Positions 14,664 to 20,518 of a DNA stretch of 20,518 bases are shown here, piece after piece; position 1 is the first letter of the stretch, and every line of letters starts with the position of its first letter. The translations under genes and the position numbers were made by a program. The stretch lies in UHGV virus genome UHGV-1338495; one strand, 5' to 3'. This DNA comes from a virus. The notes beneath the pieces were generated by a model. It was not told where the DNA came from. It made no database searches and worked only from the letters and a program-made list of their open reading frames with translations.

Positions 14664-14748
14664 GGCGGTCAGTGTACGCTTAACTGGTAAAGTCGGTGCC
14701 TGCCTCCGGGTGGATCATGTATGCGGGTTCGACCCCCGCCACTGACCG
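14664..14748. other. Structured intergenic element between the MuF and G genes (T-arm-like hairpin enclosed by a 9-bp long-range pairing)
   Basis: Plus strand has CGGTCAGTG … GCGGG-TTCGACC-CCCGC-CACTGACCG: the hairpin resembles a tRNA T-arm and the flanking arms are exact reverse complements. Coordinates are approximate (±1-2). Confidence 0.3.
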
Positions 14749-15747
14749 TTAATCAATTTGTCCTTCCAGCACCTCAAGCATTCCGCCCCGGATATCCGAT
14801 TTCAGCTTATCCATATTGATAACCCGGTAAGCATTCACAATCACATCCAGTTTGTCGGGCTGACGTTTCAGACTGTACGGTGCATTAACGGCAATCTGCA
14901 CACTGCCATCCTTATTTTCCACGATATACATCAGATTTTTGTGCCGTTTGTCCCACAGCACCGCTTTTGGCTTTGCCAGCATTGCCGGTAAGCGCCCGAA
15001 GTCCTCTGGCATCAGGGCGATGCCGTCATTCTGATGTTTCACACTGTCTGCATGGAGCACATTTTTACCGCTCATCGCCAGCAGGCGGGCCGGTGGCGTT
15101 CCCGTCCGGCTTTCCACTGCCTGCGCAATGCTTTCAGTCATAAAGCCCAGCGTGCGGATATCGTTACCACCTCGCCGGGTCTGCATGATGTTTTTTGCCC
15201 AGATGCGGAACGCCAGCTGCCGCTCCGGGCTGTTGTTCATCTCCTGAACCACCATTTCCCGTAACGCCGGGCTTTTCACCTCGATCAGTTTGCGGATCAG
15301 CGCCTGGTCTGTGCCGAACGCTGCCGAGCCGGGGTTATATGACCAGCCCACATCCGGTGTCATGGTTCTGGTGCCATCTGAATATGTGGTCACCGGCATT
15401 TCTCTGACTTCTCCGGTCTGTTTATCCACGCCAGCCTCAACATTGCGGGTGGAGAGATGATCCTCACCGGATGAAACGGATAACCCCATTGCATCCAGAC
15501 GAGCCTGAGACAATGGCCGCACACGGCAGCGGCAGTTCCAGCCATTAGGTGGGTAGTGTGTTTTCCAGAACGGATCGTCATAGCGGAATACCAGACCGTT
15601 AAGGGCGGAATGCGACGGGCGGGTACGGCTGTCCATGACCGCCACATACTGCCAGAACGGATGCGTGTCCGTGTTGTTCATCATCTGCGTGTAACGCCCG
15701 GCATTGTAAGCCACACGGGTGTTCACGTTGTAAATCAGCGCCAGACG
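14749..15747 (-). CDS. Head morphogenesis protein, MuF family (Mu gp30-like); 5' end lost in the N gap
   Basis: The track fuses this with the portal across the N run. The part after the gap contains the MuF signature region …RVAYNAGRYTQMMNNTDTHPFWQYVAVMDSRTRPSHSALNGLVFRYDDPFWKTHYPPNGWNCRCRV…. Confidence 0.8.
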   Translation of the reverse strand, partial: RLALIYNVNTRVAYNAGRYTQMMNNTDTHPFWQYVAVMDSRTRPSHSALNGLVFRYDDPFWKTHYPPNGWNCRCRVRPLSQARLDAMGLSVSSGEDHLSTRNVEAGVDKQTGEVREMPVTTYSDGTRTMTPDVGWSYNPGSAAFGTDQALIRKLIEVKSPALREMVVQEMNNSPERQLAFRIWAKNIMQTRRGGNDIRTLGFMTESIAQAVESRTGTPPARLLAMSGKNVLHADSVKHQNDGIALMPEDFGRLPAMLAKPKAVLWDKRHKNLMYIVENKDGSVQIAVNAPYSLKRQPDKLDVIVNAYRVINMDKLKSDIRGGMLEVLEGQID

Positions 15748-15847
15748 NNNNNNNNNNNNNNNNNNNNNNNNNNNNNNNNNNNNNNNNNNNNNNNNNNNNN
15801 NNNNNNNNNNNNNNNNNNNNNNNNNNNNNNNNNNNNNNNNNNNNNNN
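15748..15847. other. Assembly gap (run of exactly 100 N)
   Basis: 100 consecutive N. It falls between the portal and MuF coding regions, both of which are incomplete. Confidence 0.95.
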
Positions 15848-16857
15848 CGTAAATCAGAATCCCTGATTTCCCGGCGCACCTCGTTATGCACCTCACCCAG
15901 CGAGCGCGCGCCTTTGTCTCCGGCTTCCGTGGTCAGCGTGCCGCCGAGTATTGCTTTGGAGATGGAACGCTCACCCCACGAAATCATGGTTTCAAACGGA
16001 TCGGCCTGACCGTTCGCTGCCGCCTGAAACTCCAGCGACATCCCGGCCGGGATGATCCCGCCTGTACGTCGCCCGATATCCATCACCGCCCGCATCAGGG
16101 CACTTTTCTGCTCCGGTGTTGCCCCGGACGGGTATTTCCCGACCTTCATTGGCAGGCCGTACACCTCCAGAAATTCCGCCAGATCGCGCACGGAATAGTT
16201 TTTGAAAATGAACGGCCAGATAAGCGTTCTGACAAGCCCCGTCGCACCACCGTAGCCGGTGCGTGAACGCGACTGATGCACTATCCAGCCAAAGGGCTGA
16301 AACGCCACCCCGGCATGGCTGCCGTCACGCAGCCGCAGTTCGCTCAAATCATCCGGGTTAAGGCAGAAATGCCCGCTGTCACGCCAGCGGATGGCGCGGA
16401 TGATGTGCATTTTACCGAGCATCCCGTGCTCAATTTCCATGCAGGAATAGCCCTTCAGGATGGCATCCGTGGCGTCAAACAGCATGGCATCAAACCAGTC
16501 TGCGGAATGCAGATATTCGTCGAGCATTTCCGCGTCCTTTTTCTCATTCGCGCTGGCGTTCGGTGGCGGCTCAATGCTCCATGGCACCCCCTGAATGGCA
16601 AGACGTCGCTTGCCCAGCTCCGCAAAAAGGTGGGTGTCCTTTTCTTCAATGTCAGCCGCCAGATCGGACTGGGCAATCAGATCGCCACGTTCAGCCCCGC
16701 GAAGGCACTGCGCCGCCCGGTTCGGGGTGATACCCGAGGCGGGATGCTCAACATAACGGCTGGCAATCTGCGGAATATCCAGCGCGGTACTTTGCATCTC
16801 CGGGTCAAAGGAGAAAGGTTTTCCGTCAAGATCAATTATGCGTCCCACTACCAGCAC
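15848..16857 (-). CDS. Portal protein, Mu gp29-like (DUF935-type); 3' end lost in the N gap
   Basis: About 336 aa are visible. GTG start at 16857-16855 overlaps the 3' end of the terminase gene. The N-terminal region (…GDLIAQSDLAADIEEKDTHLFAELGKRR…) matches my memory of Mu-type portals. Confidence 0.7.
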
Positions 16858-18385
16858 CCCCGATCAAATTCATGATATGCCTCATCGTCATCACGATAAC
16901 CGCCCTCCATTGCCCGCGACCGCTCCGGCAGCGCCTGACAGGCTGATTCATCCAGGATGAATCCCTCCATGTATGACGCCCGGTTTGCCATACAGAGTGC
17001 CACGGCAAAATCACCATGGCGGCGGGCGTTCGCAGCCGTTGCGTTCTGGTCCTTCGTGCGCCCCTTGTCGATTTGCGGGATACCATTCACCACCTTCACA
17101 TGGCGCAAATCATCAAGCGTGGTCTGATGGCGGGCGACGAGGATATTCTGATCTTCAAACTCGGCTTTCAGTTTTGGCATCCACTCGCCGTACCACTTCG
17201 GCGACAACATCACGCAGTCGATGATGTCCGGGCCAAAGGCCAGCAGTGCGGCTTCTGCCAGATAGCCGCCGTTACCGGTGGCGTCGAACGCCGCACCGAC
17301 CAGCGCCGGAACGCGGGTCAGGATGTACATCATCACCTGTTCCTGCTGGGCATACGGCAGGTTGCGCAGCTCCACGCGAAACACCTCGCGCTTTGCCAGG
17401 AGTTCGGTGATTTCCAGCAGCACAAAGCAGGACAGGTCACCGGTGCGGGCAAAGTCTTCCCCGAAGCTGAAGCGGGAACGGGGATTTAATTTCTCTAAAA
17501 GCGGTTTTAAATGTTCTTCACACCAGGTTAAAACTTCCGATTCACGCAGCCATGCGGCACGGCTGATGAAGTCGTCCGGGGCTTCAAACGTCAGAATCGG
17601 GATGTCACGAATCATCGCCATTTCAATAAGCGCGTGAGGAATATAGGCACCGCCGGATTTTTTCGGGATACAGCCGTATTCCTCGTCGGCATCCTCACGG
17701 GTCGGGGCGTTTTTGTAGAGATCATCACGCCATTTCTGCTCGCTTTCCGGTGACCATTCCTGATCGGTGACGTAACAGATACGACGGTACAGCCCGTCCG
17801 CAATGGCATCATCCAGGGTTATGCGGTGGACGCTGTAATCCTTGCGCCCCTCGCGGGCTTCCTGAATGTACTGATTAAACAGATTATCGACGCCGTTATG
17901 CGTGGAGATAATACGCACGCGCGCGCCCCACATAGTGAGCGCCATTGCCGCCTTGAGAAGCTCATCCAGTGACTCGTGGAACGCGGCTTCATCAATCACC
18001 ACATCCCCCTGAAGACCGCGCAGGTTTGACGGACGGGAAGACAATGCCTGAATTTTGAATCCACTGTTCGGAAAGCGGATCATGTAGGTCAGAATTTCTT
18101 CTTTTTTATCCCGATCCCAGAANNNNNNNNNNNNNNNNNNNNNNNNNNNNNNNNNNNNNNNNNNNNNNNNNNNNNNNNNNNNNNNNNNNNNNNNNNNNNN
18201 NNNNNNNNNNNNNNNNNNNNNNCAAACCAGCGGGCCTGATAATCCAGAAACACCGGCATATCACCGGGCAAATCAAGGCTGTCCGGCACATCCACGCCCA
18301 GCAGGGCTTTTTCACCGGACAGATCAATTTTGCGGGGAGGTGTCATTTGTATCAGTGAAGGAGACTTTTCTTTGGCTTTGTTCAT
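16848..18385 (-). CDS. Terminase large subunit, Mu gp28-like; interrupted by a 100-N gap
   Basis: ATG at 18385-18383 opens a 54-aa stretch that runs into the gap. On the other side the 411-aa track ORF frame stays open upstream into the Ns (…FWDRDKKEEILTYMIRFPNSG…). The two halves are in different apparent frames, as expected if the true gap length is not 100. Confidence 0.75.
18123..18222. other. Assembly gap (run of exactly 100 N)
   Basis: 100 consecutive N inside the terminase large subunit gene. Confidence 0.95.
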
Positions 18386-18633
18386 CAGGCTTTACCTGTC
18401 AGAATGCTTTTGATTCGGAACTCAAGCTCTTCAGTCATCACGTCCACGCCACTCAACTCATCAGTGACAGCCCCTGCCAGCAGCGAATGCAGTTGTTCCA
18501 GGGATATTTCCCCGGCAATGCTGAGTTCAGTCAACTCACGACACGCTTTTATGGTTTCAGGAGGTAACTGTGTTGCAAGACTGAATGCCTTCTGATGAGC
18601 ACTACTCATCAGTGAGCGGTTATCTGTTACCAC
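18385..18633 (-). CDS. Small protein sharing its C-terminal ~30 aa with the upstream gp27-like protein
   Basis: 82-aa ORF with GTG start preceded by AGGAGGTG. Its TGA stop overlaps the terminase ATG (TGATG). C-terminus …AVTDELSGVDVMTEELEFRIKSILTGKA. Confidence 0.5.
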   Translation of the reverse strand: MVTDNRSLMSSAHQKAFSLATQLPPETIKACRELTELSIAGEISLEQLHSLLAGAVTDELSGVDVMTEELEFRIKSILTGKA

Positions 18634-18643
18634 GATTCACCTC

Positions 18644-19225
18644 CTACGCCTTACCAAGCAGCATCTGCCTGATACGGAATTCTATCTGCTCGCTCATGCC
18701 ATCCACGCCGCGCAACTCGTCGGTGACGGCGTTCGCCATCTCTTCAGCAAATGCGGCCCGGATTTCTTTTTCACGCTTAATGCTGCGCTCGGCGGCACTT
18801 TCCGCACGCTGTGCCGACAGGAGGATGTCCTTAATAAGGCGCATATCCACATCGCTGTCGCTGTTCAGGGATTCGGTGGCGGCACGCAGACGGCGGTACA
18901 TCAGGGCACGGGACATCTCCAGAATCAGTGCCGTGGTTTCACCGGTCGGCTTATCCCCCAGTTCGGCCATCATGGCTTTTGTCTGCTCGCGTAAATCACG
19001 CAGATTACGGGCAATCAGCTCATTACGGGAGGCTTCCCGGCTGATGGCCGCCGGTGAAAGCTGCTGCTCTTCCGGCAGGCCTGCCTCACGGATCAGACGG
19101 TTGATTTCCTCGCGGATCTGGACCTGCGTCAGGCGTTTTTCACGCAGCATTTCCAGCAGCGGCTTACGGATGCTGTCGGGGAGCAAATCCACCTTGCGTA
19201 CACGGCCACGCGTCGGCTTATCCAT
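18644..19225 (-). CDS. Terminase small subunit candidate, Mu gp27-like (DUF3486-type)
   Basis: 193-aa ORF upstream of the terminase large subunit gene. The basic N-terminus (MDKPTRGRVRKVDLLPDSIRKPLLEMLREKRLTQVQI…) is typical of the family as I recall it. Confidence 0.55.
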   Translation of the reverse strand: MDKPTRGRVRKVDLLPDSIRKPLLEMLREKRLTQVQIREEINRLIREAGLPEEQQLSPAAISREASRNELIARNLRDLREQTKAMMAELGDKPTGETTALILEMSRALMYRRLRAATESLNSDSDVDMRLIKDILLSAQRAESAAERSIKREKEIRAAFAEEMANAVTDELRGVDGMSEQIEFRIRQMLLGKA

Positions 19226-19227
19226 CG

Positions 19228-19518
19228 TTACCCCCTTGCGCGTGGTTTCTTCACACCCGGAACAGTGGCACGACCTTCCGCCACATCCTGACCCCGGCCG
19301 GTCAGTTCAGCGATGAAATAACCGTTAACAAGCGTGCGCTTACGCACCAGTCCCTGCTCAGCAAGCCAGGCAATGTGGGTGTGAACGGTGTCGCGGGACA
19401 CGCGGTGGCCGTAATCATCCAGGCAGTCCTGAAGCACGGATTCGCCCAGTTCGCCGTTGTAATCCGCCAGCGACCGCAGAATGACAAGACGCTGATCTTC
19501 AGTAATGAAATCACTCAT
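19228..19518 (-). CDS. Small putative winged-helix DNA-binding protein (Mu gp26 position)
   Basis: 96-aa ORF. Start ATG overlaps the upstream stop (ATGAGTGA). It has an HTH-like segment (…VSRDTVHTHIAWLAEQGLV…) and a basic C-terminus. Confidence 0.45.
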   Translation of the reverse strand: MSDFITEDQRLVILRSLADYNGELGESVLQDCLDDYGHRVSRDTVHTHIAWLAEQGLVRKRTLVNGYFIAELTGRGQDVAEGRATVPGVKKPRARG

Positions 19519-19822
19519 TGTGTTTTTTCCTTACAGCCTGCTCCAGCAGCAGTTCGTTCTGGTGGGAGACGGATTTCAGGGTGGCATTGGTGGCCTTAAG
19601 CTCACCGCGCAGGGTGGTGATTTCGATATTGAGTCTGTTCACCTCCTGCTGCGTGGGCAGGCCGGAAATCCGGCTCTCCACCCGCTCAACCCGGTCGGAG
19701 AGTTTTTCAAAGGCCTCGCGGGGGACAAAGGTTTTGCGCATCAGCGCCATAAAGATCCCCCCGGCCGTGGCTGTTGCCGACAGGATCGGCACGACATAAT
19801 CTTTAACGATGCTGACCCACAT
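19511..19822 (-). CDS. Membrane-anchored coiled-coil protein (DUF2730-like; Mu gp25 position)
   Basis: 103-aa ORF with one N-terminal hydrophobic helix (IVKDYVVPILSATATAGGIFMALM) followed by a charged, heptad-like region. Confidence 0.5.
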   Translation of the reverse strand: MWVSIVKDYVVPILSATATAGGIFMALMRKTFVPREAFEKLSDRVERVESRISGLPTQQEVNRLNIEITTLRGELKATNATLKSVSHQNELLLEQAVRKKHNE

Positions 19823-20030
19823 GACCGGCCTCCATGATGCTCTGGCAGTTCACACAACGGATGGCATCCGGCACGGCAACCAGACGGGCGGCCGGAATGT
19901 CACCCCCGCAGTCTGCGCATACACGCCTGCCCGGAGTATCCTCCACCCGGCACTTACGTGTCAGCCGGTCACAAAGGGCGCGTTCTGTTGCCCGCTCCAC
20001 GACTGCCTGAGCACAATCTGAATCATCCAT
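19803..20030 (-). CDS. TraR/DksA-family C4 zinc-finger protein
   Basis: I place the start at ATG 20030-20028, preceded by GGAAAAAGG, giving 75 aa: MDDSDCAQAVVERATERALCDRLTRKCRVEDTPGRRVCADCGGDIPAARLVAVPDAIRCVNCQ…. It has the CxxC-(17)-CxxC spacing of TraR/DksA zinc fingers. Confidence 0.7.
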   Translation of the reverse strand: MDDSDCAQAVVERATERALCDRLTRKCRVEDTPGRRVCADCGGDIPAARLVAVPDAIRCVNCQSIMEAGHVGQHR

Positions 20031-20040
20031 ACCTTTTTCC

Positions 20041-20316
20041 TTACTTCGTCTTTCCTGCCGGAACAGCAGTCGTTCCGGCCATATCAGTAAATTCATGCTG
20101 TCGCTGTGCCTCCAGACGGCGGATGCTGGCCTTGTCCACGTTGCAGTTCTTAATCACCGCCAGCAGTTGCAGGTTGTAAGTGACCGATGCGCCAAACGTG
20201 AACGGCTGCGGCACAGAAGGGACCAGACAGTCAGCCAGCCATTCAGCGGGGATCGGCACCGGCTTCACCGGCACGTATTTCACAGACGGCCCGCCGCACC
20301 CGGTCAGCCACATCAT
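20041..20316 (-). CDS. o-spanin (Rz1-like outer-membrane lipoprotein)
   Basis: Reading frame +1 relative to Rz. From Met at 20316 the product starts MMWLTGC (lipobox LTGC) followed by a Pro-rich segment (GGPSVKYVPVKPVPIPAEW). It begins inside Rz and extends about 200 nt past the Rz stop. An alternative start at 20412 would give a longer signal peptide. Confidence 0.55.
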   Translation of the reverse strand: MMWLTGCGGPSVKYVPVKPVPIPAEWLADCLVPSVPQPFTFGASVTYNLQLLAVIKNCNVDKASIRRLEAQRQHEFTDMAGTTAVPAGKTK

Positions 20317-20518
20317 CAGGCACAGGAACAGAGGCCGCAGGCACCGTTGCCAGCGACCGGCGGACAATGCTCTGCTGTTCCTCGCTGTGCTGCATGTTCT
20401 GCTGTTTTTCATTCGTGGCCGCCTTACTGATTTGTGAAATGAGTTGCAGGGTGCGTTGCTGGTTTGCCAGCACCAGACGGGCTTCGTCCCGTTCACGCAC
20501 AAGCACATGATTATTGTC
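20243..20518 (-). CDS. i-spanin (Rz-like); 5' end beyond the right edge of the window
   Basis: The frame is open to the window edge. The visible part is a charged, coiled-coil-like region (…RERDEARLVLANQQRTLQLISQISKAATNEKQQ…) with the o-spanin gene overlapping in another frame. Confidence 0.5.
   Translation of the reverse strand, partial: DNNHVLVRERDEARLVLANQQRTLQLISQISKAATNEKQQNMQHSEEQQSIVRRSLATVPAASVPVPDDVADRVRRAVCEIRAGEAGADPR

Follow-up and report, generated by a model that had tools for sequence, protein, structure and literature searches.

A TraR-family gene inside the lysis cassette of a Mu-like Escherichia coli prophage

Introduction

The occurrence of a gene for a small zinc-finger protein among the late genes of a prophage raises the question of whether its product acts on host RNA polymerase (RNAP), and at what stage of the phage cycle it would be expressed. 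We address this question for one such gene in the window analysed here, by which we mean the whole 20,518-nucleotide stretch of UHGV virus genome UHGV-1338495.

Regulators of the TraR family have been characterized in some detail. Binding to the RNAP secondary channel, inhibition of rrnB P1 without ppGpp and complementation of a dksA-null mutant have been reported for F-plasmid TraR and for five homologues from phages and prophages, all five of which bound RNAP and inhibited rrnB P1 (PMC9239242). The DxxDxA tip of TraR and of lambda Orf73 reaches the RNAP active site and is required for activity, and TraR R48 binds the beta' rim helices (PMC9239242). This Arg and the C4 zinc site likewise count among the residues that, by experiment, TraR and lambda Orf73 need to act on RNAP. 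[quoted passage not shown] Three further TraR residues, E46, R49 and K50, touch beta'Si3; full activation depends on them, whereas binding and inhibition do not (PMC6970531).

Results

Boundaries of the TraR-like gene

The TraR-like gene is a minus-strand open reading frame of 75 codons at 19803-20030, exactly the interval given in the original prediction, with its ATG at 20030 and a TAA stop at 19805-19803. The translated product is MDDSDCAQAVVERATERALCDRLTRKCRVEDTPGRRVCADCGGDIPAARLVAVPDAIRCVNCQSIMEAGHVGQHR. The gene, its parts and its junctions are as follows.

19803 to 20030, minus strand: TraR-family gene, 75 aa, in the slot of Mu gene 24 (open reading frame, PF01258, TIGR02419, fold matches, dN/dS)
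20010 to 20027, minus strand: codons 2-7, D-D-S-D-C-A, the DxxDxA tip of the N-terminal helix (HMMER alignment to TraR D3-E-A-D6-E-A8)
19908 to 19919, minus strand: first zinc knuckle, C38-A-D-C41 (cysteines invariant in 119 of 119 representatives)
19881 to 19886, minus strand: R49-L50, aligned to TraR R48-R49 (the Arg invariant in 119 of 119)
19845 to 19856, minus strand: second zinc knuckle, C59-V-N-C62, and start of the C-terminal helix (invariant cysteines; predicted helix 60-70)
20031 to 20043, minus strand: upstream junction, with the Rz1 stop TAA (20043-20041) and an overlapping Shine-Dalgarno AAGGA (20042-20038), read directly from the sequence
19803 to 19822, minus strand: 20-nt overlap of the 3' end with the start of the DUF2730 gene, whose ATG is at 19822, read directly from the sequence

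The AAGGA lies 7 nt before the ATG and overlaps the Rz1 stop codon, and only 10 nt separate that stop from the ATG. A longer, 97-aa reading from an ATG at 20096 was rejected; this ATG lies inside the Rz1 gene and, at homologous loci, the 22 residues that it would add are either interrupted or unrelated. The 75-aa form is taken as the gene because the extension is not conserved and would displace the TraR-type functional tip. Given the established specificity of methionine aminopeptidase, the mature N-terminus would be in register with that of TraR, M1-D2 here corresponding to S2-D3 of TraR after removal of Met. In VHML Orf8, an N-terminal extension has been suggested to contribute to the lower activity of that protein (PMC9239242).

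Genomic context

The whole 20.5-kb window is one co-directional minus-strand block of Mu-type late genes and represents the late part of an E. coli prophage of Mu-like myovirus type. From low coordinates upward, genes for Gp48, baseplate J, Gp46, a Gp44-like hub, a DNA circularisation protein and the tape measure are followed by those for Gp41, tube, sheath and Gp37, and then by head genes, portal, large terminase and Gp27. Beyond the Gp27 small terminase lie genes for a gp26-like winged-helix protein, the DUF2730 protein, the TraR-like protein, Rz1 and Rz. The neighbours of the TraR-like gene are as follows.

18644 to 19225, minus strand: small terminase subunit of the Mu Gp27 family (PF11985, E 3e-33; PHROG 426)
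19228 to 19518, minus strand: winged-helix protein of the VpaChn25_0724 family, in the slot of Mu gp26 (NF050184, 117 bits; PHROG 436)
19511 to 19822, minus strand: DUF2730 protein, 103 aa, a homologue of the Mu gp25 releasin (PF10805, E 1e-22; aligns with Mu gp25)
20041 to 20313, minus strand: Rz1-like outer-membrane spanin (LysC) with lipobox L-T-G-C (PF23793 LysC, E 8e-16; PHROG 3001)
20243 to 20518, minus strand: 3' part of an Rz-like inner-membrane spanin that runs off the window end (other-frame open reading frame; upstream of lysC in L001)

L001 is an E. coli prophage about 99% identical in DNA across this region; it continues upstream with a lysozyme gene and a Mor/C-family activator gene, and its copy of the TraR-like gene is annotated by RefSeq as 'TraR/DksA family transcriptional regulator'. 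The region is found in 231 of 5426 complete E. coli genomes, about 4%. The PF23793 LysC match covers residues 66-135 of the Rz1 open frame, with the RefSeq lysC gene at the same place in L001, and we infer the Rz identity of 20243-20518 from its position relative to Mu gp23. The DUF2730 protein has an N-terminal transmembrane segment (hydrophobic residues 10-28).

The gene had been described as lying between lysis and packaging genes. Its upstream neighbour is indeed a lysis gene, but the downstream neighbour is not a packaging gene. Since this neighbour encodes a DUF2730 protein, and DUF2730 is the family to which the lysis protein gp25 of Mu, the releasin, belongs, the TraR-like gene falls within an extended lysis cassette. 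It is two genes upstream of that for the small terminase.

A number of other features of the region were observed. The protein in the gp26 position (19228-19518, minus strand) gives weak Pfam helix-turn-helix matches and weak PADLOC matches to Csa3/CARF-associated helix-turn-helix regions (E about 1e-3). Directly downstream of the Gp27 gene (18644-19225, minus strand), an 82-aa open reading frame at 18385-18633 on the minus strand shares 65% identity with Gp27 over the C-terminal 31 residues of each (BLASTP E 1e-12), and the Gp27 tail matches PHROG 30922; this open reading frame has the appearance of a partly duplicated terminase tail. At 15748-15847 and 18123-18222 the window holds 100-N runs in place of 905 nt and 227 nt of L001. 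The seeming fusion of the portal and F genes by a 0.9-kb deletion (open reading frame 14749-16857) was discarded as an artefact of a 100-N gap, as were the split large-terminase open reading frames 16848-18083 and 18089-18385, which reflect no real rearrangement. RefSeq places a 'tRNA-OTHER' at 1137-1216 of L001, in the space separating G (virion morphogenesis) from F (minor head); ARAGORN and Rfam at gathering thresholds gave no match in the window, where the equivalent interval is about 14668-14747. Outside the window, the 112 nt annotated as intergenic between lysozyme and Rz (L001 7995-8106) contain, when read by eye, a short and very hydrophobic open frame, MIALLCVVVVLRGVLWLR.

Timing of expression

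The co-directional packing, the 10-nt gap upstream and the 20-nt overlap downstream make late expression together with the lysis and packaging genes the natural reading. Gene order and junctions are those of a Mu late (Plys-type) operon, with the Mor/C-family activator gene upstream in L001, and by this arrangement the TraR-like gene is a member of a Mu-type late operon. Mu itself expresses gp25 from its late Plys transcript (PMC9239132). Alignment of the L001 activator-lysozyme intergenic region with the Mu Plys region gave no convincing similarity, so we make no claim of a C-type late promoter sequence.

An additional mode of expression was allowed for in the original prediction, which held that the gene might act during lysogeny if it had its own promoter. 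In this reading an own or read-through promoter would drive the gene in the lysogen, where its product would remodel host stringent-type transcription to the lysogen's advantage, in the manner of a moron. We find no support for it. A scan of 18300-20518 for sigma70-like promoters returned one match against a chance expectation of 0.7, and that match lies inside the TraR-like open reading frame; the same kind of scan upstream of the TraR-like gene in L001 returned none; the 10 nt to the upstream stop leave no room for a promoter between the Rz1 and TraR-like genes. No terminator-like site was found on the coding (minus) strand flanking the gene. Given the tight junctions, the chance-level promoter match and the lack of a coding-strand terminator, we see no basis for independent or lysogenic expression. 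The gene also lies amid a co-directional late block, and growth inhibition would be costly to a lysogen. Nothing was found in favour of lysogenic expression, although a phenotype would be possible if it occurred, since TraR-family proteins alone slow growth. We consider expression in the lysogen very unlikely, and late expression remains the reading used below.

Family membership and fold

The cysteines of the TraR-like protein have the pattern C38-x2-C41-x17-C59-x2-C62, which is the spacing of F TraR (C37-x2-C40-x17-C58-x2-C61). The CxxC…CxxC spacing that had suggested the TraR/DksA family in the 75-aa product is thereby upheld. Profile searches place the protein in the same family, with both matches above curated cut-offs; Pfam PF01258 zf-dskA_traR is matched with 46 bits where the cut-off is 24.9 (E 5e-12) and NCBIfam TIGR02419 C4_traR_proteo with 65.1 bits where it is 59.7 (E 6e-18), the latter spanning protein residues 2-67 and model positions 1-64 of 64. 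PHROG 54, a DksA-like zinc-finger family, is matched at E 7.5e-17. In a sequence search of the PDB the best matches were the TraR chains of the RNAP complexes 5w1s and 6n57 (E 3-4e-5, residues 2-68). The equivalog models gave scores far below their cut-offs, with the F TraR model NF010268 at 25.8 bits against 108, and the DksA models TIGR02420, NF008045 and NF033459 at 18.5-22.5 bits against 105-289, one pair of values being 18.7 against 115.5, and over the zinc-finger part only. By these scores the protein is a member of the TraR family and an orthologue of neither F TraR nor DksA.

A word-indexed homologue search returned close E. coli alleles only, and distant relatives came from an exhaustive search of 1.84 billion representatives, which yielded 506 relatives at E <= 0.001, mostly of 65-80 aa and aligned from the first residue. 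Scanning genome contigs with the protein gave mostly zinc-finger-only matches, probably to DksA-like genes, and little context information. PADLOC assigned neither the TraR-like nor the DUF2730 protein to a defence system.

A model predicted without homologues was unusable (pLDDT 46), and the structure was rebuilt with AlphaFold on an alignment of 97 homologues, reaching a mean pLDDT of 84.4. The model has a helix at 3-27, a zinc ribbon and a helix at 60-70, a layout in which the 75-aa protein is predicted to have one N-terminal helix in place of the DksA coiled coil. Foldseek against the PDB placed the TraR chains 6n57_M and 5w1s_M at the top (probability 1.00 and 0.99), followed by DksA. TM-scores to the TraR chains reach only about 0.45-0.49, which reflects a different orientation of the helix in the free model. 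The predicted C-terminal helix carries the conserved E67 (TraR E66), and the tail at 69-75, GHVGQHR, is of low confidence and differs from the basic tail of TraR.

The fold and family searches also bear on a second alternative, in which the protein is a zinc finger that binds nucleic acid. Being small, with a C4 motif and a gene that overlaps the next one at its 3' end, it could serve as a translational activator of that next gene, as Com does for mom in Mu, or could be a late activator like P2 Ogr that binds DNA or contacts the alpha subunit. Mu uses its small zinc-finger protein Com elsewhere, as translational activator of mom. However, a Pfam scan at E <= 0.1 returned neither Com nor Ogr/Delta, with zf-dskA_traR as the sole significant family, and the fold search returned TraR and DksA rather than fingers that bind nucleic acid. 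Mu-like phages, moreover, rely on Mor/C-family proteins for late activation, and one of these is encoded upstream in L001. We regard a nucleic-acid-binding role as extremely unlikely.

Conservation of RNAP-contact residues

The tip D2-D-S-D5-C-A7 aligns with D3-xx-D6-x-A8 of TraR, and R49 is the equivalent of the TraR rim-helix residue R48. In 119 aligned representatives these are the majority residues, with D2 in 110, D5 in 112, A7 in 98, R49 in all 119 and E67 in 105. The TraR contacts to beta'Si3, E46, R49 and K50, are replaced here by A47, L50 and V51, and Leu at position 50 is the majority state of the nearest clade (79 of 119 representatives). For comparison with proteins of established activity, the sequences of the six tested family members were translated from published gene blocks. 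The TraR-like protein is 24-38% identical to these; all six have Arg-Arg at this site, as against Arg-Leu in the TraR-like protein and in its counterpart from Vibrio phage martha.

Compared with other E. coli alleles, the TraR-like gene mostly shows dN/dS values of 0.2-0.5, and it is under purifying selection. Substitutions among alleles cluster in the mid-helix and linker and spare the acidic tip and the zinc domain. Some E. coli copies appear damaged. For example, allele P0008 (71 aa) has a changed C-terminus and has lost the fourth cysteine, and locus L074 has no intact C4 open reading frame, possibly through a frameshift; these copies suggest occasional decay in resident prophages.

Judged from these residues, RNAP binding and inhibition are likely intact and activation is likely weaker. 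Because the beta'Si3 contacts are Ala, Leu and Val, weaker stimulation of amino-acid-type promoters than by F TraR is expected. The original prediction had the protein mimicking the effects of ppGpp and DksA; the motifs for the inhibitory half of this activity are present, and the activating half may not hold, given the replacement of E46, R49 and K50. Its further claim of a late-stage effect on host transcription is consistent with the homology to TraR, namely the DxxDxA motif, the rim-helix Arg and the C4 site, and with the packing among late genes.

Pairing with DUF2730 and the relation to Mu gp24

Pairing was counted in 78 viral (IMG/VR) contigs found with the DUF2730 profile. A small C4 open reading frame ends at the DUF2730 start in 75 of these, and in 31 of those 75 the overlap is as long as here, with the open reading frame end at +19 nt from the DUF2730 match start. 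Among the 78 loci, DxxDxA and the Arg are both kept in 42, both lost in 30 and mixed in 3. The 30 loci lacking both motifs are Mu gp24-like types with conserved residues of their own (W17, G19 and P25).

The seven nearest representatives that were looked up are 40-50% identical to the TraR-like protein, come from unrelated metagenomes and all have Arg-Leu; DUF2730 is directly next in six of them. Where the contigs of Arg-Leu representatives are long enough, GemA/Mor lies upstream and Gp27/Portal_Mu downstream. A DUF2730 context was present for one of the five Arg-Arg representatives looked up. The idea of Arg-Leu as an exclusive mark of Mu-like contexts was dropped, with DUF2730 following 6 of 7 Arg-Leu and 1 of 5 Arg-Arg representatives; Arg-Leu is enriched in Mu-like contexts, in numbers too small for any broader statement.

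In Mu, the slot of the TraR-like gene is occupied by gene 24, a 64-aa 'hypothetical protein' (NC_000929 11524-11718, which is 2525-2719 of locus L053). Pfam zf-dskA_traR has no match in Mu gp24. A gp24-like profile aligned to a TraR-like profile by hhalign gives a probability of 96.3% and E 2e-9 over the full length. From these alignments Mu gp24 looks like a degenerate homologue of the TraR-like clade in which the RNAP-contact residues have been lost together, and it probably no longer acts on RNAP. Literature searches returned no functional study of Mup24 or of HI1497.

These observations raise a third alternative, in which the conserved job of the locus is independent of RNAP and the zinc-ribbon protein acts together with another phage protein in timing lysis or packaging. 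That partner could for instance be the gp26-like winged-helix protein, the terminase or the DUF2730 releasin, the last through its cytoplasmic coiled coil, and the TraR-like features would be ancestral or secondary. The pairing in 75 of 78 contigs, and among the representatives looked up (6 of the 7 with Arg-Leu, 1 of the 5 with Arg-Arg), is what such a partnership would give, as is the retention in 30 of 78 loci, including Mu gp24, of a protein that lacks DxxDxA and the Arg and conserves W17, G19 and P25. There is also a precedent, since in VP882 the phage TraR binds QisA, another protein of the phage, by a route that does not depend on DxxDxA (bioRxiv 10.64898/2026.07.27.740977). However, the protein studied here keeps every RNAP-contact motif, and allele substitutions avoid these motifs. 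The tip and the Arg are, moreover, kept together (42) or lost together (30) with few mixed cases (3), a pattern expected if both serve one joint function, which is present here. For Mu itself, the lysis paper reports co-expression of gp22 and gp25, states that gene 25 is required for endolysin release and nowhere mentions gp24 (PMC9239132). From this co-expression and the silence on gp24, Mu gp25 may be read as working without gp24. We consider an RNAP-independent role through a phage partner unlikely, if less so than the two alternatives above, and return to action on RNAP as the preferred reading.

Discussion

Comparison with known TraR-family proteins

F-plasmid TraR (5W1S, 6N57/6N58) resembles the TraR-like protein in length (about 73-75 aa) and in its N-terminal helix, C4 zinc ribbon and C-terminal helix. 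The two share the DxxDxA tip, an identical Cx2C-x17-Cx2C and the conserved IPxAR, Pro54, Gln63 and Glu67. They differ in that identity is 29%, the linker between helix and zinc domain is a few residues longer in the TraR-like protein, and TraR is encoded in a conjugation operon whereas the TraR-like gene lies in a phage late/lysis operon. DksA shares the C4 zinc-finger domain and, by homology, the RNAP secondary-channel site, but is about 151 aa long, has a two-helix coiled coil and uses ppGpp as cofactor.

The phage-borne homologues lambda Orf73, P2 Orf82, VP882 Orf61, VHML Orf8 and X. bovienii Gp34 (PMC9239242) belong to the same family and are of the same length. A complete DxxDxA is common to the TraR-like protein and lambda Orf73, VP882 Orf61 and VHML Orf8, and P2 Orf82 is the closest tested protein at 38% identity. 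Four of these five homologues, namely lambda Orf73, P2 Orf82, VP882 Orf61 and VHML Orf8, are encoded in early or regulatory regions (pL, Pe, or near immunity or quorum-sensing genes), in contrast to the late position of the TraR-like gene.

Counterparts in the same or a similar place occur in phages of other hosts. In Vibrio phage martha 12B12 a 'DksA-like zinc-finger protein' with DxxDxA, Arg-Leu and 44% identity is encoded in the same slot, directly before DUF2730. H. influenzae FluMu HI1497, a DksA/TraR zinc-finger protein, likewise occupies this slot, which the lysis genes precede and the small terminase follows, and Burkholderia phage KS10 gp7 is similarly placed between lysis genes and small terminase. 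Mu gp24 is alike in genomic position, helix-plus-C4 layout and x17 spacing, but its tip reads N-E-D-Q-N-R-A rather than DxxDxA and it is without the invariant Arg, the IP motif and the C-terminal helix.

A proposed role late in infection

The gene probably encodes a TraR-type regulator that binds the secondary channel of host RNAP and is expressed late by this Mu-like E. coli prophage, a conclusion drawn from sequence comparison. The gene would be transcribed solely as part of one long late RNA whose start lies upstream of the endolysin gene. By homology, the long N-terminal helix would enter the RNAP secondary channel and bring the acidic DxxDxA tip beside the active site, the zinc-ribbon domain would dock on the beta' rim helices via Arg49, and the C-terminal helix would touch the beta lobe/Si1. 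Open complexes at promoters for rRNA and ribosomal proteins would then be destabilised without ppGpp, as with TraR and lambda Orf73, and polymerase and resources would be freed for phage late transcription before lysis. The inhibitory activity would be intact in this scheme, and stimulation of amino-acid-type promoters would be weaker than with F TraR.

Several points count against this scheme. Arg-Arg is present in six of six tested proteins and Arg-Leu is present here, and identity to those proteins is just 24-38%. Additionally, Mu gene 24 has been retained without the RNAP-contact residues, which hints at a second function of the locus. Finally, the gene is placed late here and early in lambda and P2.

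A broader proposal can be made for the family. In transposable phages, the TraR-like gene and that for the DUF2730 releasin may together make up a conserved unit of two genes, through which shut-down of host RNAP is coupled, by co-translation or by contact, to holin-less lysis. The Arg-Leu clade would then be an inhibition-only, late-phase variant of TraR, and Mu gp24 a decayed form with only an RNAP-independent role. We offer this as a speculative proposal that is unlikely to be correct.

Implications

The TraR-like feature is largely ordinary and already known, because public annotation already names it and the mechanism of the family is established, and our result mostly confirms existing annotation. 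Two modest additions are made. The first is that a TraR-like gene lies in the lysis cassette, beside the recently defined releasin, and the second is that Mu gene 24, listed as 'hypothetical', appears to be a degenerate member of the TraR family. If the proposed activity is true, Mu-like prophages would carry a ppGpp-independent switch that lowers host ribosome synthesis late in infection. This would extend the result obtained with lambda Orf73, the product of an early gene, to another group of phages and to another time in the phage cycle.
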